Of a stretch of DNA of 10,711 nucleotides, positions 1 through 10,711 are shown piece by piece. Each line of letters opens with the position of its first letter. The stretch's first letter is position 1. The translations under genes and the position numbers were made by a program. The stretch is taken from the IMG/VR virus record IMGVR_UViG_2778261215_000003. One strand, given 5' to 3'. This DNA comes from a virus. Taxonomy: Duplodnaviria > Heunggongvirae > Uroviricota > Caudoviricetes. The notes beneath the pieces were generated by a model. The model saw only the letters and a program-made list of their open reading frames with translations. It ran no database searches and had not been told where the DNA came from.

Positions 1-567
1 ATGCTTATTGGCTATGTACGCGTGTCAACAAATGACCAGAACACTGATTTGCAACGTAATGCACTGAACTGCGCGGGATGTGAGCGGATTTTTGAGGATA
101 AAATCAGTGGCACTAAGTCCGACAGACCAGGGCTGAAAAAACTGCTCAGGACACTATCGGCAGGAGACACGCTGGTTGTCTGGAAGCTGGACAGGTTGGG
201 GCGCAGTATGCGGCATCTTGTTACGCTGATAGAAGAGTTGCGTCAGCGAGGCGTGAATTTCCGAAGCCTGACTGACAGTATTGATACCAGCACCCCAATG
301 GGCCGTTTCTTTTTTCATGTCATGGGTGCCCTGGCTGAAATGGAACGCGAACTGATAGTTGAACGTACCAGGGCAGGGCTGGCTGCAGCTCGTGCCAAAG
401 GCAGAGTAGGTGGACGCCGTCCTAAGTTGACCACCGAACAGTGGGCACAGATTGGGCGTTTACTCGAGGCCGGAGAATCAAGACAGCGTATTGCACTAAT
501 TTTTGATGTGGGTGTTTCCACAATTTATAGAAAATTTCCGGCAAATAAGAGTAATGAATCCCCCTGA
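1..567 (+). CDS. Serine DNA invertase, Hin/Gin/Cin/Pin family
   Basis: 188-aa ORF with stop TGA at 565-567. N-terminus GYVRVSTNDQ carries the catalytic Ser at residue 10; conserved VVWKLDRLGRS and MGRFFFHVMGALAEMERELIVERT blocks; C-terminal helix-turn-helix (GVSTIYRKF). Close to Salmonella Hin and Mu Gin by recall. Confidence 0.9.
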   Translation: MLIGYVRVSTNDQNTDLQRNALNCAGCERIFEDKISGTKSDRPGLKKLLRTLSAGDTLVVWKLDRLGRSMRHLVTLIEELRQRGVNFRSLTDSIDTSTPMGRFFFHVMGALAEMERELIVERTRAGLAAARAKGRVGGRRPKLTTEQWAQIGRLLEAGESRQRIALIFDVGVSTIYRKFPANKSNESP

Positions 568-709: not shown

Positions 710-1882
710 ATGGCTCAGGATTACCACCACGGGGTGCGCGTTGTTGAAGTCAACGAAGGCACCCGATCCATTACCACGGTGAGCACCGCCATCGTGGGCA
801 TGGTCTGCACGGGCGATGATGCCGATGCAAAAATGTTTCCTCTTAACAAACCTGTGCTGATCACTGATGTGCTGACTGCCAGCGGTAAAGCGGGTGAGTC
901 CGGCACGCTGGCCCGTTCGCTGGATGCCATCGCTGACCAGGCAAAACCCGTGACCGTTGTTGTGCGTGTGCCGCAGGGTGAAACGGAAGAAGAAACCACG
1001 ACCAATATCATCGGCGCAGTGACTGCTGAAGGTAAAAAAACAGGCATGAAAGCTCTGTTATCTGCCCAGTCACAGCTCGGCGTTAAACCGCGCATTCTCG
1101 GCGTGCCAGGCCACGATAACAAAGCCGTTGCGACTGAGTTGCTGAGCGTGGCGCAAAGCCTGCGTGGGTTTGCTTACCTGTCAGCGTATGGCTGCAAGAC
1201 GGTACAGGAGGCGATCACTTACCGTGAAAACTTCAGCCAGCGCGAAGGGATGCTGATCTGGCCTGACTTTACGGGCTGGGACACGGTGCTGAATGCCGAA
1301 GCAACGGCATATGCCACCGCCCGTGCGCTCGGTCTGCGCGCCAAAATTGATGAGCAGACCGGATGGCACAAAAGCCTGTCCAACGTGGGCGTGAACGGTG
1401 TCACCGGAATTTCTGCTGATGTGTTCTGGGATCTGCAGGACCCGGCAACCGATGCAGGTCTGCTTAACCAGAACGACGTTACCACGCTTATCCGCAAAGA
1501 CGGTTTCCGCTTCTGGGGTTCCCGCTGTCTGAGCGATGATCCGCTCTTTGCCTTCGAAAACTACACCCGAACCGCGCAGGTACTGACGGACACGATGGCA
1601 GAAGCGCACATGTGGGCGGTGGACAAACCGCTGAATCCGTCGCTGGCTCGCGACATTATCGAAGGTATCCGCGCCAAAATGCGCAGCCTGGTCAGTCAGG
1701 GGTATCTCATTGGTGGTGATTGCTGGCTGGACGAGTCGGTGAACGACAAAGACACTCTGAAAGCCGGGAAACTCACGATCGACTACGACTACACGCCAGT
1801 GCCGCCACTTGAAAACCTGATGCTGCGTCAGCGCATCACCGATCAGTACCTGGTGAATTTTGCCAGCCAGGTCAGCGCGTAA
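710..1882 (+). CDS. FI: Contractile tail sheath protein (P2 gpFI-like)
   Basis: 390-aa ORF with AGGAGG at 695-700, 9 nt before the ATG. N-terminus [19 protein letters not shown] and C-terminal [23 protein letters not shown] match the P2 FI sheath protein by recall; size matches. Confidence 0.93.
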
Positions 1883-2461: not shown

Positions 2462-2764
2462 ATGAGCGATAAGCAGACTGAAAAGACTATTCAACTGGAT
2501 ACTCCCATCAAGCGCGGAAAAACGGAAATCACCGAAATTATGCTGCGTAAACCGCAGTCCGGTGCGCTGCGCGGTACACGCCTGCAGGCCATTATGGATA
2601 TGGATGTGAACGCGATGATGACCGTGATCCCCCGCATCTCCAGCCCGGCACTGACTGCACAGGAAATTGCAGAGATGGACCCGGCAGATCTCACCGCCAT
2701 GTCGGTTGAGGTTGTCACTTTTTTGTTGAAGAAGTCGGTGCTTGCCGGTTTACCGACAGCCTGA
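2462..2764 (+). CDS. E: Tail assembly chaperone (P2 gpE-like)
   Basis: 100-aa ORF between the tail tube and tape measure genes, the conserved position of the tail chaperone; contains the slippery heptamer near its 3' end. Confidence 0.85.
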   Translation: MSDKQTEKTIQLDTPIKRGKTEITEIMLRKPQSGALRGTRLQAIMDMDVNAMMTVIPRISSPALTAQEIAEMDPADLTAMSVEVVTFLLKKSVLAGLPTA

Positions 2765-2898
2765 CGGTTGACGATCTGGTGGCAGATATCGCCACCATTT
2801 TTCACTGGCCGCCATCCGTTACTGACGTTATGCCGCTGACCGAAGTGCTGGAATGGCGGTATAAAGCGATTCAGAGAAGCGGGGCCAACGATGAGTGA
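2462..2898 (+). CDS. E+E': Tail assembly chaperone frameshift product gpE+E' (programmed -1 frameshift at 2719-2725)
   Basis: After the T6G slippery run, the -1 frame is open for 57 sense codons from 2725 to TGA at 2896-2898, overlapping the T start at 2891. Predicted fusion about 145 aa. This mirrors the conserved G/GT and E/E' arrangement of long-tailed phages. Confidence 0.75.
2719..2725 (+). other. Slippery heptamer T TTT TTG (translational recoding site)
   Basis: TTTTTTG read in the E frame as A-CT TTT TTG; it is the same heptamer used by P2 E/E' by recall. Confidence 0.75.
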
Positions 2899-5800
2899 TA
2901 ATAACCTGCGCCTGCAGGTCATTCTTAATGCGGTTGACAAACTCACCCGCCCATTCCGTGCTGCACAGGCCAGTTCGAAAGAGCTGGCTGGCGCAATCAG
3001 AAACTCCCGTGACGCATTAAAGCAACTCAATCAGGCGGGTAACAGCCTGGAAAAATTTCGCAAGCTGCAGGCCGATAACAAGAAGTTAGGCGACAGGCTG
3101 AACTATGCCAGACAGAAGGCTAATTTGCTTAGCTCTGAGCTGGAGTCGATGGAACAACCATCACAACGGCACCTTGTGGCTTTAGGTCGGCAAACGCTGG
3201 CAGTCCAACGCCTGGAAGAACAACAAAAATATTTGCAGAAGCAAACGGCGCTTGTGCGTGCAGAACTGTACCGGGCGGGAATTTCTGCGAAAGATGATGC
3301 GGGAGCAACTGCCCGTTTAGCCCGTGAAACATCACGTTATAACCAGGAACTGTCGAAACAGGAGGCGCGGCTGAAGCGACTGGGGGAAGCTCAGCGCAGG
3401 ATGAATGCGGCGCGTGCCAGTTATGCCCGTTCACTGGAAGTGCGTGATCGTATTGCAGGTGCCGGAGCCACCACCACGGCTGCAGGGCTGGCAATGGGGA
3501 CGCCAGTGATGGCGGCAGTAAAAAGCTATACCAGCATGGAAGATGCCATGAAAGGTGTGGCAAAGCAGGTCAATGGTCTGCGTGACGATAATGGCAACCG
3601 TACTGCACGTTTTTATGAAATGCAGGATGCCATCAAAGCTGCCAGCGAACAGTTTCCGATGGAAAACGGTGCGGTGGACTTCGCTGCACTGGTTGAAGGT
3701 GGTGCGCGTATGAACGTTGCAAACCCTGACGACAGCTGGGAAGACCAGAAACGTGACCTGCTGGCCTTCGCCAGCACGGCGGCAAAGGCGGCAACAGCCT
3801 TTGAGCTGCCAGCGGATGAACTGTCAGAAAGTCTGGGGAAAATCGCCCAGCTCTACAAAATACCTACCCGCAATATTGAACATCTCGGTGACGCGCTGAA
3901 CTATCTGGATGATAACGCCATGTCGAAAGGGGCGGACATCATTGATGTCATGCAACGCCTGGGCGGTGTGGCTGACCGTCTGGATTATCGTAAAGCGGCG
4001 GCGCTGGGTTCCACCTTCCTGACACTGGGTGCTGCGCCGGAGGTTGCAGCCAGTGCAGCAAACGCGATGGTGCGTGAATTGTCCATTGCCACCATGCAAA
4101 GCAAGAGTTTCTTTGAAGGGATGAATCTGCTGAAACTCAATCCTGAAGTGATTGAAAAGCAGATGACGAAGGATGCTATGGGAACCATCCAGCGTGTGCT
4201 GGAGAAGGTGAATGCACTGCCGCAGGATAAGCGCCTGTCTGCCATGACCATGTTGTTTGGTAAAGAGTTTGGCGATGACGCAGCGAAACTGGCAAACAAC
4301 CTGCCGGAACTGCAGCGCCAGTTAAAACTGACAGCGGGCAATGATGCGCTCGGCTCCATGCAGAAAGAATCCGACATTAACAAGGATTCACTTTCTGCGC
4401 AGTGGTTGCTGGTCAAAACCACTGCACAGAATACCTTCAGCAGCCTGGGCGAAACGCTGCGCCAGCCGCTGATGGATATTCTGTACACGGTGAAAAGCGT
4501 TACGGGAGCGTTGCGTCGCTGGGTGGAAGCTAACCCGGAACTGACGGGCACACTGATGAAAGTAGCCGCTATTGTGGCTGCGGTTACCGTAGGCCTCGGC
4601 ACCTTGGCTGTGGCGCTGGCTGCAGTGCTGGGGCCGCTGGCAGTGATCCGTCTGGGGTTCTCTGTGCTGGGTATCAAAACGTTACCTTCCGTTACGGCAG
4701 CAGTAACACGAACCAGCAGCGTGTTGTCCTGGCTGGCTGGCGCACCACTGGCACTGCTGCGACGCGGGCTTGCTTCATCGGGCAACGCAGCGGGTTTACT
4801 TACTGCGCCGTTGTCGTCTTTGCGTCGCACGGCATCACTGACGGGAAATGTCCTGAAAACTGTAGCTGGTGCGCCGGTTGCACTGTTCCGGTCTGGATTA
4901 TCCGGTTTACGTGCTGTTGCTGTGATGTTTATGAATCCACTGGCAGCACTACGCGGCGGGCTGGCTGCCGCAGGCGCGGTGCTGCGAGTGCTGGCATCCG
5001 GCCCGCTGGCGATGCTGCGCGTTGCTCTGTATGCCATATCTGGTCTGTTAGGTGCTCTGCTCAGTCCGATAGGTCTTGTGGTTACTGCACTGGCAGGCGT
5101 GGCGCTGGTTGTCTGGAAATACTGGCAACCCATCACCGCATTTCTCGGTGGCGTGGTGGAGGGATTCAAAGCGGCGGCAGGTCCCATCAGTGCTGCATTC
5201 GAACCACTTAAGCCTGTGTTCCAGTGGATTGGCGACAAAGTGCAGGCGTTGTGGGGCTGGTTTACTGATCTGCTGACGCCCGTTAAGTCGACCTCTGCTG
5301 AACTGCAGAGCGCAGCGGCAATGGGGCGACGATTCGGGGAGGCACTGGCGGAAGGGCTGAATATGGTTATGCATCCGCTGGACTCCCTGAAATCTGGCGT
5401 TTCCTGGTTGCTGGATAAACTCGGCATTGTCAGTAAAGAGGCTGCAAAGGCGAAACTGCCGGAAAGCGTGACGCGTCAGCAACCTGCGACGGTGAATGCA
5501 GACGGTAAAGTGATGATGCCATCGGGTGGTTTTCCGTCATGGGGATATGGCTTTGCGGGGATGTATGACAGCGGCGGCTATATCCCGCGCGGGCAGTTTG
5601 GCATCGTCGGTGAAAACGGGCCGGAAATTGTTAACGGCCCGGCAAATGTGACCAGCCGGAGAAATACAGCTGCACTGGCTGCCGTTGTTGCCGGAATGAT
5701 GGGCGTTGCTGCCGCGCCTGCAGAGCTTCCACCGTTGCACCCTTTGGCACTTCCCGCGAAAGGCGGCGAAGCGATGGTGAGTCGTGCAGCCACTGTGCCG

Positions 5801-5968
5801 CCCGTTCAACGGATTGAGGCACCGATGCAGATCATCATTCAGACGCAGCCAGGACAAAGTGCGCAGGATATTGCGCGGGAGGTGGCCCGCCAGCTTGATG
5901 AACGTGAACGCAGGCTGAAGGCAAAAGCCAGGAGTAACTACAGCGATCAGGGGGGATACGACGCATGA
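2891..5968 (+). CDS. T: Tail tape measure protein (P2 gpT-like)
   Basis: 1025-aa ORF. N-terminal part is coiled-coil-like (Q/R/K/E/L-rich), the centre is a hydrophobic Ala/Leu/Gly/Val-rich repeat block, and the C-terminal region carries GIVGENGPEIV, a motif typical of tape measures. Start ATG 2891 overlaps the E' stop. Confidence 0.92.
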   Translation: MSDNNLRLQVILNAVDKLTRPFRAAQASSKELAGAIRNSRDALKQLNQAGNSLEKFRKLQADNKKLGDRLNYARQKANLLSSELESMEQPSQRHLVALGRQTLAVQRLEEQQKYLQKQTALVRAELYRAGISAKDDAGATARLARETSRYNQELSKQEARLKRLGEAQRRMNAARASYARSLEVRDRIAGAGATTTAAGLAMGTPVMAAVKSYTSMEDAMKGVAKQVNGLRDDNGNRTARFYEMQDAIKAASEQFPMENGAVDFAALVEGGARMNVANPDDSWEDQKRDLLAFASTAAKAATAFELPADELSESLGKIAQLYKIPTRNIEHLGDALNYLDDNAMSKGADIIDVMQRLGGVADRLDYRKAAALGSTFLTLGAAPEVAASAANAMVRELSIATMQSKSFFEGMNLLKLNPEVIEKQMTKDAMGTIQRVLEKVNALPQDKRLSAMTMLFGKEFGDDAAKLANNLPELQRQLKLTAGNDALGSMQKESDINKDSLSAQWLLVKTTAQNTFSSLGETLRQPLMDILYTVKSVTGALRRWVEANPELTGTLMKVAAIVAAVTVGLGTLAVALAAVLGPLAVIRLGFSVLGIKTLPSVTAAVTRTSSVLSWLAGAPLALLRRGLASSGNAAGLLTAPLSSLRRTASLTGNVLKTVAGAPVALFRSGLSGLRAVAVMFMNPLAALRGGLAAAGAVLRVLASGPLAMLRVALYAISGLLGALLSPIGLVVTALAGVALVVWKYWQPITAFLGGVVEGFKAAAGPISAAFEPLKPVFQWIGDKVQALWGWFTDLLTPVKSTSAELQSAAAMGRRFGEALAEGLNMVMHPLDSLKSGVSWLLDKLGIVSKEAAKAKLPESVTRQQPATVNADGKVMMPSGGFPSWGYGFAGMYDSGGYIPRGQFGIVGENGPEIVNGPANVTSRRNTAALAAVVAGMMGVAAAPAELPPLHPLALPAKGGEAMVSRAATVPPVQRIEAPMQIIIQTQPGQSAQDIAREVARQLDERERRLKAKARSNYSDQGGYDA
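4741..5030 (+). repeat. Degenerate tandem repeat (5 copies, 63-66 nt / about 21 aa period) inside T
   Basis: Repeat units begin near 4745, 4808, 4874, 4937 and 5003 (CCACTGGCACTGCTGCGACGCGGGCTT and variants), encoding PLALLRRGL / PLSSLRRTA / PVALFRSGL / PLAALRGGL / PLAMLRVAL. Confidence 0.7.
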
Positions 5969-6450
5969 TGATGGTGTTGGGATTGTACGTGTTTATGCTG
6001 CGCACCGTGCCGTATCAGGAGCTGCAGTATCAACGCAGCTGGCGACATGCGGCAAACAGCCGGGTAAACCGACGTCCGTCCACGCAGTTTCTGGGACCGG
6101 ACAACGACATGCTGACGCTTTCCGGTGTTCTTATGCCGGAGATAACAGGTGGCAGGCTGTCGTTGCTGGTACTGGAGCAGATGGCAGAACAGGGGAAAGC
6201 ATGGCCCCTGATTGAAGGCAGCGGCACGATTTATGGCATGTATGTGATTGAGGGACTGAATCAGACTAAAACGGAGTTTTTCCGCGACGGTATGCCGCGC
6301 CGGATTGAGTTCACCCTGTCGCTCAAACGGGTGGATGAATCCCTGTCCGATATGTTCGGTGATCTCAGTGCGCAACTGAATAATCTGCAGGACACGGCAA
6401 CGTCTGCCTTAAGCGATATCAGTAAAACGGTGGGAGGGCTGCTGTCGTGA
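5965..6450 (+). CDS. U: Tail protein (P2 gpU-like)
   Basis: 161-aa ORF; ATG at 5965 overlaps the T stop (TGA 5966-5968); GGGGGA ribosome-binding site at 5951-5956; position and size fit P2 U. Confidence 0.88.
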   Translation: MMMVLGLYVFMLRTVPYQELQYQRSWRHAANSRVNRRPSTQFLGPDNDMLTLSGVLMPEITGGRLSLLVLEQMAEQGKAWPLIEGSGTIYGMYVIEGLNQTKTEFFRDGMPRRIEFTLSLKRVDESLSDMFGDLSAQLNNLQDTATSALSDISKTVGGLLS

Positions 6451-7547
6451 ATTTCAGCTCTGAACTGCTTAACAAAGGCAACAAAACTCCGGCATTCAGC
6501 ATCAGTATTGAGGGCAGGGATATCACCACTGTGCTGGATAACCGCCTGATGAGTCTGACGCTGACGGACAATCGGGGCTTTGAAGCGGACCAGCTTGATC
6601 TGGAGCTGGACGACGCCGATGGAAAAATAGCGCTGCCGCGCCGTGGTGCGGTCATTACGCTGGCGCTGGGCTGGAAGGGGCAGCCGCTTTTCCCGAAAGG
6701 GGCATTCACGGTGGATGAAATTGAACACACTGGCGCACCGGACCGCCTGACTATCCGGGCGCGAAGTGCTGATTTTCGGGAAACGCTGAATACCCGCCGT
6801 GAAAAGTCGTGGCACAAGACCACCGTTGGGGAAGTGGTAAAGGAAATAGCTGCGCGGCACAAACTGAAGATGGCACTGGGTAAAGACCTGTCTGATAAAC
6901 CCGTGGAGCATATAGACCAGACTAATGAGAGTGACGGCAGTTTTCTGATGCGGCTGGCGCGACAGTACGGTGCTATTGCGTCGGTGAAAAATGGCAATCT
7001 GTTATTCATCCGGCAGGGACAGGGTAAAAGCGCCAGCGGTAAACCACTACCGGTGATCACTATCACACGTAAGGACGGCGACAGTCACCGCTTTACCCTG
7101 GCGGATCGCGGAGCTTACACGGGTGTAATTGCCAGCTGGTTGCATACCCGCGAACCCGCGAAGAAAGAAAGCACCACGGTGAAGCGTAAGCGCAGGACTA
7201 AGAAGCAGAAGAAAGAGCCGGAAGCGAAGCAGGGCGATTACCTGGTGGGTACGGATGAAAACGTGCTGGTACTTAATCGCACTTATGCCAACCGGAGCAA
7301 CGCCGAACGAGCGGCGAAAATGCAGTGGGAACGCCTGCAACGCGGAGTTGCGTCATTCTCGCTACAACTGGCGGAAGGGCGGGCAGATCTCTACACGGAA
7401 ATGCCAGTGAAAGTCAGTGGCTTTAAACAGCCGATAGATGATGCGGAATGGACCATTACGACTCTGACGCATACCGTCAGCCCGGATAACGGTTTTACGA
7501 CCAGTCTGGAGCTTGAAGTGAGGATTGATGATTTCGAAATGGAATGA
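6447..7547 (+). CDS. D: Tail protein D (P2 gpD-like, late gene D)
   Basis: 366-aa ORF with a GTG start at 6447 overlapping the U stop (GTGA); position immediately before ogr and size match P2 D. Contains a Lys/Arg-rich low-complexity segment (aa 237-262, nt about 7155-7232). Confidence 0.88.
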   Translation: MNFSSELLNKGNKTPAFSISIEGRDITTVLDNRLMSLTLTDNRGFEADQLDLELDDADGKIALPRRGAVITLALGWKGQPLFPKGAFTVDEIEHTGAPDRLTIRARSADFRETLNTRREKSWHKTTVGEVVKEIAARHKLKMALGKDLSDKPVEHIDQTNESDGSFLMRLARQYGAIASVKNGNLLFIRQGQGKSASGKPLPVITITRKDGDSHRFTLADRGAYTGVIASWLHTREPAKKESTTVKRKRRTKKQKKEPEAKQGDYLVGTDENVLVLNRTYANRSNAERAAKMQWERLQRGVASFSLQLAEGRADLYTEMPVKVSGFKQPIDDAEWTITTLTHTVSPDNGFTTSLELEVRIDDFEME

Positions 7548-7573
7548 TTCTTCGCAATGGAGAACTTTTAAGT

Positions 7574-7600
7574 TTGCAAAATGGAATAATGCGGTATCAT
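7574..7600 (+). promoter_or_regulatory. Candidate sigma70-type promoter for ogr
   Basis: TTGCAA (7574-7579) and TATCAT (7595-7600) separated by a 15-nt spacer, about 40 nt upstream of the ogr ATG. The spacer is shorter than optimal, so this is weak. Confidence 0.25.
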
Positions 7601-7637
7601 TATTGTGAATTTAGCAAAAATGGGGAGAACTCGAAAA

Positions 7638-7856
7638 ATGATGATTTGCCCACTGTGTGGAAGTGCCGCCCATACTCGCAGCAGTTTTCAGGTATCTTCA
7701 TTGACCAAAGAGCGTTACAACCAGTGCCAGAACATTAACTGCAGCCATACTTTTGTTACCCATGAAACTTTTGTTCGTTCGATTGCAACGCCAAAAGAGT
7801 CAAATCCGGTTCAGCCGCATCCAATGAAATCAGGACAGGTGGCGCTCTCTCTTTGA
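7638..7856 (+). CDS. ogr: Ogr/Delta-family zinc-finger late transcription activator
   Basis: 72 aa from ATG 7638, with GGGGAGA ribosome-binding site at 7622-7628. Cys4 arrangement CPLC...CQNINC and the central KERYNQCQNINCSHTF block match P2 Ogr (72 aa) by recall. The upstream ATG at 7605 lacks a ribosome-binding site and would add a non-conserved extension. Confidence 0.9.
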   Translation: MMICPLCGSAAHTRSSFQVSSLTKERYNQCQNINCSHTFVTHETFVRSIATPKESNPVQPHPMKSGQVALSL

Positions 7857-7933
7857 CGCTGCCGCCATTTTGTCGCCATCGTTAAAAAACAGTGCTTCTA
7901 ACATCATGATTTTAAAAGGCATAAATTTCAGGC

Positions 7934-7979
7934 AACAAAAAACCCATCAACCTTGAACCGAAATGGCGGGGTTGATGGG
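7934..7979 (-). terminator. Putative rho-independent terminator, oriented for minus-strand transcripts (downstream of ybjL)
   Basis: 10-bp perfect stem CCCATCAACC (7943-7952) / GGTTGATGGG (7970-7979) with a 17-nt loop that can pair internally (CCG/CGG). On the minus strand the hairpin is followed by TTTTTTGTT (complement of 7934-7942). No U-run follows it on the + strand. Confidence 0.45.
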
Positions 7980-8091
7980 CTCCACAAAATGGGGACATCA
8001 AAGAAAAGCAGTGGCACTAATTAAGACTGATGCCCTGCGGAAAAGTTCTGCGGTTGTGCAAAAAAATTTCATTTTCAGGGCAACTTCAGTT

Positions 8092-9777
8092 TTATCCTAA
8101 TCCTGGCCATACCATGACGATGATTGTCCCTGCCAGCGTCAGCAGGACGTTGGCGATTGCGTAGGTGCCCGCGTAGCCCAGCGCAGGGATGTTACTGCGA
8201 GCTGTATCACTGATGATCTCCATTGCCGGCGCGCAGGTGCGTGCGCCCATCATTGCGCCGAACAACAGTGCGCGGTTCATTCGCAATACATAAGCACCGA
8301 ACAAGAAACAGATAACCACGGGCACAAGACTGACAATTAATCCGGCAATCAACATCTGACCGCCAATCGCGCCCAGGCCGTTATTAATACCGCTACCGGC
8401 GCTCAGACCAACGCCTGCCATAAACACCATCAAGCCGAACTCTTTCACCATGCTTAATGCACCTTGCGGAATGTAACCGAAGGTCGGGTGGTTAGCACGC
8501 ATAAAGCCCAGCATAATTCCGGCGAATAACAACCCGGCAGCGTTCCCCATGCCGAAACTGAATGTGCTGAACTGGAAGGTGATCATCCCGATCATCAGCC
8601 CAATAACAAAGAAGGCGCAAAATGCCAGCAGGTCAGTGACCTGGCTGTGAATCGAGATAAAGCCGATGCGATCGGCGATGGTTTTTACGCGACGGGCATC
8701 ACCGCTGACTTGTAAAACGTCACCTTTGTTAAGCACGACGTTGTCATCTATCGGCATCTCAATCTGGCTACGAATGACGCGGTTAAGGAAGCAACCGTGA
8801 TCGGTCAACTTCAGTTGTGCGAGACGTTTACCTACAGCGTTATGGTTTTTAACGACCACTTCTTCAGTGACGATACGCATGTCGAGAAGGTCACGATCGA
8901 AAACTTCTTTACCGTTACGGAAGCTGGGATCGAGTCGGGCATGGGCGTCGGGATAGCCTACCAACGCTATTTCATCGCCCATTTGTAGCACGGCATCACC
9001 GTCTGGATTTGCCAGAATCCCGTTACGTCGAATACGTTCAATGTAGCAGCCGGTTTGTCGATAAATACCCAGTTCACGCAGATTTTTGCCGTCGGTCCAG
9101 GCCACCAGCTCCGGGCCGACGCGATAGGCGCGGATCACCGGTAAATAAACCTTACGGTTGGCATCAGTGTCCAGGCCACGTTCGCGGGCGATTTGCTGGG
9201 CGCTGGTCTGTAAGTCCTGATGCTGCAATTTCGGCAAGTAACGCGCACCAACAATCAAACTCACCAGACCGATTAAATAGGTTAAGGCATACCCGAGGCT
9301 CAGATTATCCAGTGCCAGTGAGAGCTGCCTGCTTTCCATGCCGGAATGACGCAGTGTATCGCCAGCACCGACCAGAACCGGTGTCGACGTCATAGAGCCT
9401 GCTAACATACCGGCCGTCAGGCCAATATCCCAGCCAAACAGCTTACCTAACCCTAAGGCGATCACCAGCGCACTGCCAACCATCACCAGTGCTAACATTA
9501 GGTAATTTTTCCCATCGCGAAAAAAAATGGAAAAAAAGTTCGGTCCGGCTTCGACCCCGACGCAGAAAATAAACAGCATAAAGCCAAGATTAAGCGCATC
9601 GGTGTTAATGCTGAAATGTTGTTGGCCTAATAACAGCGATACGACTAAAACGCCAATGGAATTACCCAGTTGGATCGAACCAAGTCGTAACTTTCCGAGA
9701 CATAGCCCAAGCGCGAGGACCACAAATAATAACAGAATGTAATTCCCATTTAACAATTCGGCGACGTTTATATTCAC
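8092..9777 (-). CDS. ybjL: Putative transporter, YidE/YbjL (AspT-type duplicated) family
   Basis: 561-aa ORF, hydrophobic N- and C-terminal halves around a soluble central region; sequence and length match E. coli YbjL by recall. GTG start (complement of 9775-9777), TAA stop (complement of 8092-8094). Confidence 0.9.
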
Positions 9778-10046: not shown

Positions 10047-10424
10047 GTGAAACATAAACAACGTTGGGCGGGGGCAATCTGCTGTTTTGTCCTCTTCATT
10101 GTGGTGTGCCTTTTTCTGGCGACGCACATGAAAGGCGCTTTTCGGGCTGCCGGGCATCCTGAAATCGGCTTGCTATTTTTCATTCTTCCTGGAGCAGTCG
10201 CCAGCTTCTTTTCACAGCGTAGAGAAGTCCTGAAACCTCTGTTTGGCGCAATGCTGGCGGCACCCTGTTCGATGCTCATTATGCGGCTGTTTTTTTCACC
10301 GACGCGCTCATTCTGGCAAGAGCTGGCATGGTTACTAAGCGCGGTGTTCTGGTGTGCGCTGGGGGCACTGTGTTTCTTATTTATCAGTAGTTTGTTTAAA
10401 CCACAGCACAGAAAAAATCAGTAA
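10047..10424 (+). CDS. ybjM: Small inner-membrane protein YbjM
   Basis: 125-aa hydrophobic ORF with a GTG start preceded by AGGAGG (10037-10042); sequence and its position between ybjL and grxA match the K-12 layout by recall. Confidence 0.85.
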   Translation: MKHKQRWAGAICCFVLFIVVCLFLATHMKGAFRAAGHPEIGLLFFILPGAVASFFSQRREVLKPLFGAMLAAPCSMLIMRLFFSPTRSFWQELAWLLSAVFWCALGALCFLFISSLFKPQHRKNQ

Positions 10425-10453: not shown

Positions 10454-10711
10454 TCAGGCGTCCAGATTTTCTTTCACCCATGCAGCAAAATCGGTATAGC
10501 CGCCGATATGTTGCTGATCGACAAAAATCTGCGGCACGGTTTCTACGGGTTTACCTGCCTTTTGTTGTAGATCTTCTTTAGTGATCCCTTCCGCACGAAT
10601 ATCTACATACTGATACTGAAAATCATCGCGTTCATTGCTCAATTTCTCAGCCAGATCTTTTGCACGCACACAGTAAGGGCAACCCGAACGACCAAAAATA
10701 ACGGTTTGCAT
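10454..10711 (-). CDS. grxA: Glutaredoxin 1
   Basis: 85-aa ORF MQTVIFGRSGCPYCVRAK with the CPYC active site; matches E. coli GrxA in sequence and length by recall. Start ATG is the complement of 10709-10711 at the window edge; stop TGA is the complement of 10454-10456. Confidence 0.93.
   Translation of the reverse strand: MQTVIFGRSGCPYCVRAKDLAEKLSNERDDFQYQYVDIRAEGITKEDLQQKAGKPVETVPQIFVDQQHIGGYTDFAAWVKENLDA

Follow-up and report, generated by a model that had tools for sequence, protein, structure and literature searches.

The 235-bp interval between ogr and ybjL in the window, by which the whole stretch of 10,711 nucleotides analysed is meant, is almost certainly the attR site of a P2/186-like prophage (Peduoviridae, Fels-2/PhiECO1 group) whose tyrosine integrase inserted it into the chromosomal gene rybB, at the 3' end. 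As read from the alignments, phage DNA runs up to position 7933, an exchange zone covers 7934-7947 and chromosomal DNA follows. The same comparisons indicate that the phage inserts into the 3' end of this small RNA gene and restores it, as other temperate phages do with tRNA genes. No evidence contradicting this explanation was found.

The right-hand late region of a P2-like phage makes up the first part of the window, and chromosomal genes make up the rest. The phage genes, all on the plus strand, code for a serine invertase (1-567), the tail sheath (710-1882), the tail tube (1892-2407), gpE (2462-2764), the tape measure protein (2891-5968), gpU (5965-6450) and gpD (6447-7547), and the last of them before the att site is ogr, the late-gene activator (7638-7856). 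The 72-aa product of ogr matches Pfam PF04606 (Ogr_Delta, E 5e-22) and NCBIfam NF007241, and it is annotated as the ogr/Delta-like protein WP_000972391.1 in UPEC-245U and in E. coli HS. The mechanical open reading frame starts from a GTG at 7605 and gives 83 aa, while the annotated and family-consistent start is the ATG at 7638. On the chromosomal side, ybjL (8092-9777, minus strand; aspartate:alanine antiporter family), ybjM (10047-10424, plus strand) and grxA (10454-10711, minus strand) follow in the order of prophage-free genomes, as the first-pass annotation had proposed. Its statement that ybjL is not truncated was also borne out, the 561-aa product matching NF003440 over positions 1-561/561 with 1178 bits, and this protein (WP_001024876.1) is identical in lysogen and prophage-free genomes. 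Between the ogr stop (7856) and the ybjL stop codon (starting at 8092) there are 235 bp, which had been described as AT-rich and non-coding. At 42.6% GC the interval is only moderately AT-rich, and it is not empty, as Rfam places the complete sRNA gene rybB inside it.

The extent of phage and host DNA was determined by megablast of window positions 7600-8400 against 5,426 complete E. coli genomes. Matches were found in 5,419, spanning ogr through ybjL in 1,115, and for most of the other genomes sampled among the matches listed the alignment started at query position 322, that is, window position 7921. The junction had been predicted to lie somewhere within 7857-8091, and it does: prophage-free E. 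coli genomes align from 7921 rightwards only. Positions 7934-8091 are present in these genomes, and the interval is thus neither wholly phage-derived nor absent from prophage-free strains. The reciprocal query, positions 2720-3280 of a prophage-free K-12-like locus, was uninterrupted in 4,294 of 5,423 genomes, indicating that about 21% of the complete genomes of E. coli have an occupied rybB site. Among the split matches listed, the left piece always stopped on the final base of the core (query 307-308), and nearly all occupied genomes carry the ogr-type right end (1,115).

From left to right, the interval is made up of four parts. The DNA at 7857-7920 comes from the ogr-side arm of attP and has become the outer arm of attR; it is absent from prophage-free genomes, and it adjoins the core in the uninterrupted attP of KP12 and in the attR of 4LV2017 and E. 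coli HS. Positions 7921-7933 form an imperfect left flank of the core with the bases of the phage, reading ATAAATTTCAGGC where attB has ATAAGTTTTAGAT (9/13 identical), and this flank is probably a core-type Int binding half-site. The exact common core, AACAAAAAACCCAT (AUGGGUUUUUUGUU on the minus strand), occupies 7934-7947 and is shared by attR, attL, attB and attP. The remainder, 7948-8091, is chromosomal DNA outside the core, comprising the rybB body, its promoter and the spacer to the ybjL stop, with 95-100% identity to and continuous with prophage-free genomes. Written out, attB is ATAAGTTTTAGAT-AACAAAAAACCCAT-CAACC, attL is ATAAGTTTTAGAT-AACAAAAAACCCAT-TTATG and attR (window 7921-7947) is ATAAATTTCAGGC-AACAAAAAACCCAT-CAACC. 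Since the bases left of 7934 are those of the phage in attR and those of the bacterium in attL, both strand exchanges must fall within 7934-7947.

The comparison of the core covered five lysogens (four of E. coli and one of Klebsiella), an empty site and a phage attP, with one end only compared for strain 2c3 (attR) and vB_EcoM-813R9 (attL). The 14-mer was found at both prophage ends in UPEC-245U, 4LV2017 (Klebsiella) and E. coli HS, at the attR of strain 2c3 (NZ_CM176618.1), at the attL of vB_EcoM-813R9 and in the KP12 attP, and as a single copy in the empty site of the prophage-free K-12-like genome. UPEC-245U, which is 100% identical to window 7600-8400, carries the full 34-kb prophage, inserted between rcdA and ybjL and with its int beside rcdA, where 174 bp separate the two host genes in the empty site of the prophage-free K-12-like genome. 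Its order rcdA, int ... ogr, ybjL is the one anticipated from P2-type prophages, with ogr next to att and int at the far end, and the expected direct repeat of AACAAAAAACCCAT was located at the int-side end beside rcdA. Naming the rcdA(ybjK)-ybjL intergenic region as the integration site was therefore correct as to place, but attB(rybB) is the better name. The attP rebuilt from attR and attL is only a few substitutions apart from the uninterrupted KP12 ogr-attP-int segment, and GenBank KY271398 already annotates attL/attR as CAGGCAACAAAAAACCCAT.

The target gene, rybB, codes for a sigmaE-dependent, Hfq-binding sRNA and is complete at 7934-8015 on the minus strand. An Rfam scan of 7400-8400 gave a match to RF00110 at 7934-8012 on the minus strand with 105.3 bits (gathering threshold 40, E 2e-22), covering the model from 1 to 79 of 79. 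The 5' end of RybB (GCCACUG...) we take to be near 8015, from the promoter spacing and the published RybB sequence. The terminator has a 12-bp stem (7981-7970 / 7952-7941) and a U-tail at 7940-7934, and its hairpin reaches -21.7 kcal/mol in the centroid fold. The core corresponds to the last 7 nt of the 3' arm of this stem plus the 7-nt U-tail, that is, the last 14 nt of rybB. A simple terminator scan of 7500-8300 returned none; the RybB hairpin was missed because its 17-nt loop exceeds the 3-8 nt limit of the scan. In the empty-site locus, RybB lies at 3014-3092 between rcdA (2461-2997) and ybjL (3172-4857), and the gene is base-for-base identical, with the same Rfam score, in lysogen and empty site. 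In the uninterrupted KP12 phage attP locus there is no Rfam match to RybB, only the 14-nt core. The absence of a tRNA from the junction, also proposed beforehand, is literally true, since ARAGORN found 0 tRNA or tmRNA genes in the whole window and hence none overlapping the core, yet the phage targets a structured RNA gene here in the way that a tRNA gene would be used.

Upstream of rybB, a sigmaE-type promoter, GAACTT-N16-TCTTA, is predicted by pattern match at 8022-8048 on the minus strand (8048-8043 and 8026-8022), and this motif ends 6 nt before the presumed rybB +1. SigmaE consensus motifs in rybB promoters, the sigmaE dependence of the gene and its location between ybjK and ybjL have been reported (PMC1804206), and the putative promoter agrees with both the published dependence and the location.

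The integrase is a tyrosine recombinase with PF24624 and PF00589 domains, and candidate binding sites for it were found on both arms. On the ogr side, two tandem putative arm repeats of the 186 type lie 11 bp apart on the plus strand, at 7860-7870 (TGCCGCCATTT) and 7871-7881 (TGTCGCCATCG), with the pattern TGYCGCCAYY. This pattern has 4 matches in the window against 0.27 expected. The other two, at 1800-1809 (plus strand) in the sheath gene and at 3508-3517 (minus strand) in the tape-measure gene, are single and far from att and probably due to chance. A second pair of arm repeats, TGCCGCCACTT and TGTCGCCACTT, is located on the int-side arm, inside the 3' end of int. The arm-site consensus of 186-type integrases is tgccGCCActt (PMC3448106), and the repeats on both sides match it, from which binding of Int at these positions would be expected. 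The 25-bp repeat CGCTGCCGCCAYTTTGTCGCCA, present after ogr and inside the 3' end of int, was initially suspected to be a remnant of an earlier int gene, but is better explained by the 186-type arm consensus. In addition, a regex scan gave IHF-like sites as consensus matches only, one on the minus strand at 7899-7911, between core and arm sites, where AATCATGATGTTA differs from WATCAANNNNTTR by a single mismatch, and two on the int-side arm (AAACAATAAGTTA); all of them may function in IHF binding.

Downstream of int, in both attP and attL, a 9-bp hairpin (ACCCGUUUA/UAAAUGGGU) with U6 after it is closed by the core. The fold of the 104-nt int-side spacer was no better than that of shuffled sequences (z -0.47), so the 9-bp hairpin and the U6 are all that the case for an int-side terminator is built on. 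The phage core thus appears to double as an int terminator, mimicking the RybB terminator.

Taken as a mechanism, the phage attP lies between ogr and int, and its core region ATAAATTTCAGGC-AACAAAAAACCCAT also serves as distal stem and U-tract of the short hairpin downstream of int. This attP core copies the final 14 nt of rybB, which comprise the U-tail and the 3' part of the terminator stem. Recombination within 7934-7947, with the cleaved nucleotides presumably inside the core, left rybB complete with sigmaE promoter, body and terminator, phage DNA following from 7933 leftwards, and the 14-bp attL copy adjoins rcdA and closes the int-side hairpin. The paired 186-type arm sites and the IHF-like sites on the arms would fit an intasome-dependent reaction, with Int and IHF as the predicted ligands, and the prophage would be expected to be still competent for excision.

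The position of the prophage between rcdA and ybjL and the lack of a tRNA gene might also suggest an anonymous spacer or the ybjL terminator as the target, with no RNA gene involved, and the minus-strand hairpin and U-tract downstream of ybjL could also stop ybjL transcripts. Indeed, the hairpin was at one point read as the ybjL terminator, an assignment dropped after the full-length Rfam match to RybB. This match, whose last 14 nt are the core, refutes an anonymous spacer as a complete description. As for a ybjL terminator, about 110 nt lie between the ybjL stop and the hairpin, and ahead of the hairpin come a sigmaE-type promoter and the conserved RybB seed region. Since rybB is also named as the target in the literature, a target without an RNA gene is very improbable. 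There are phages with sRNA or tRNA genes of their own, and phage DNA borders rybB directly at this junction, which would be consistent with the whole interval being phage DNA with a phage-borne copy of rybB instead of a chromosomal target. However, prophage-free genomes have the gene in this very position and with no sequence difference, the locus is uninterrupted in 4294 genomes, and the KP12 attP contains the 14-nt core only with no RybB match; this possibility was refuted and can be practically dismissed.

It could be argued as well that the junction is a historical scar, left by a fixed and decayed prophage remnant with non-functional ends, given that the element is found in about 21% of genomes and is vertically inherited in many lineages. 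Against this stand the full 34-kb P2-like gene set of UPEC-245U, with intact int, cI, apl-like, replication, capsid, tail and lysis genes, the perfect core at both ends and the intact arm sites, as well as the occurrence of a 96-97% identical int-att module as an uninterrupted attP in a Klebsiella phage record. A decayed remnant is therefore considered unlikely, and an attR formed by integration at the 3' end of chromosomal rybB is the explanation retained.

Site, phage group and principle have all been described before, and there is no new biology in them; in this respect the identification of the site in the first-pass annotation was not novel. Nilsson et al. (2011) described PhiECO1 (HS 916812-948276), PhiECO2 (ATCC 8739), PhiECO3 (CFT073) and PhiSEN1 as sharing one integration site. 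The PhiECO1 coordinates in HS correspond to rcdA, int ... ogr, ybjL, and its Ogr is identical to the one here (WP_000972391.1). Archer et al. (2011) listed three P2-like prophages, Rybb*W, Rybb*B (with retron Ec86) and Rybb*Cr, as inserted at the 'rybB ncRNA', Hudson et al. (2014) reported a Klebsiella island, Kpn38RybB, integrated precisely within rybB, and hotspot #29 of Hochhauser et al. (2023) is occupied only by Felsduovirus phages within rybB. A literature search pairing ybjL, ybjK or rcdA with a P2-like prophage or integrase gave nothing relevant, the site being indexed under rybB. PhiECO1-3, the Rybb* prophages and those of hotspot #29 have the same locus, the 14-bp core and the 186-type switch genes (CI, CII, Fil, DinI-like) in common with the prophage studied here, and differ from it only in cargo and strain-level sequence.

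The Klebsiella elements 4LV2017 (KY271398, Elveevirus) and KP12 have gpD-ogr-att-int DNA 96-97% identical to that of the E. coli prophage and the same annotated core. The difference is the host genus, which is Klebsiella for 4LV2017, KP12 and Kpn38RybB and E. coli here. The Klebsiella attB has 19 contiguous bp in common with attP (CAGGCAACAAAAAACCCAT), whereas the E. coli attB has 14 contiguous bp plus 9/13 of the flank (23/27 overall). The 96-98% identity of the int-att module across both genera suggests a recent cross-genus spread. P2 integrates at the cyaR (ryeE) sRNA gene, 186 at a tRNA-Ile gene, and Fels-2 and SopEPhi at ssrA. These four phages follow the same principle, in which a P2-family tyrosine integrase recombines inside the 3' end of a structured RNA gene and the gene is kept intact by a replacement end from attP, but their target RNAs and core sequences differ from those of the rybB prophage. 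The arm sites of P2 are of the P2 type (tgTGGaCa) and not of the 186 type found here.

Several variants were observed at the site. The prophage of strain 2c3 (NZ_CM176618.1, locus 4171-5236) has a different ogr at the same site, and an additional hypothetical ORF (WP_059340324.1; 363 bp, minus strand) separates this ogr from the att arm; the arm spacer differs, while the arm repeats and the core are kept. As for cargo, UPEC-245U (locus 27071-29585 and 17196-18215) has an AAA ATPase and HNH endonuclease, where E. coli B is reported to have retron Ec86 and HS has other ORFs, and a DUF5677 gene; 4LV2017 carries a reverse transcriptase (locus 10905-12888), and the HS cargo consists of two hypothetical ORFs (locus 10166-12520). 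The variable cargo of otherwise similar rybB prophages likely represents defence-system hotspots. The serine recombinase at window 1-567 is of the resolvase/invertase type (PF00239 and HTH_7) and adjoins tail-fibre genes. In the UPEC-245U locus (11156-13152), a gp53-like fragment comes after the invertase, together with two tail-fibre assembly genes in opposite orientations, and the combination looks like a Gin/Cin-type invertible host-range switch. The vB_EcoM-813R9 record (ON470620.1, 1-2500) contains the host genes ybjI, ybjJ and rcdA beyond attL, indicating a computationally excised prophage with an overcalled boundary. Finally, NZ_CM169477.1 and NZ_CP054371.1 have small non-prophage insertions at rcdA-rybB-ybjL, one being an IS1 in rcdA and the other a serine acetyltransferase gene.

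Lysogeny leaves RybB itself unchanged, but the sequence after its U-tract is replaced, being GCCUGAAAU instead of AUCUAAAAC, and the DNA that rcdA transcripts read into is also swapped. It is conceivable, though a long shot, that the altered downstream DNA measurably changes how efficiently RybB terminates, how heterogeneous its 3' ends are or how much antisense read-through comes from rcdA. Outer membrane proteins (OMPs) are phage receptors. If such an effect were true, the sigmaE/OMP response would be prophage-tuned in about one fifth of E. coli strains. As to the locus itself, the annotation of the interval is corrected from an empty spacer to an attR overlapping the 3' end of rybB, and it provides a clean textbook case of an sRNA terminator used as a phage attachment site with the gene preserved.
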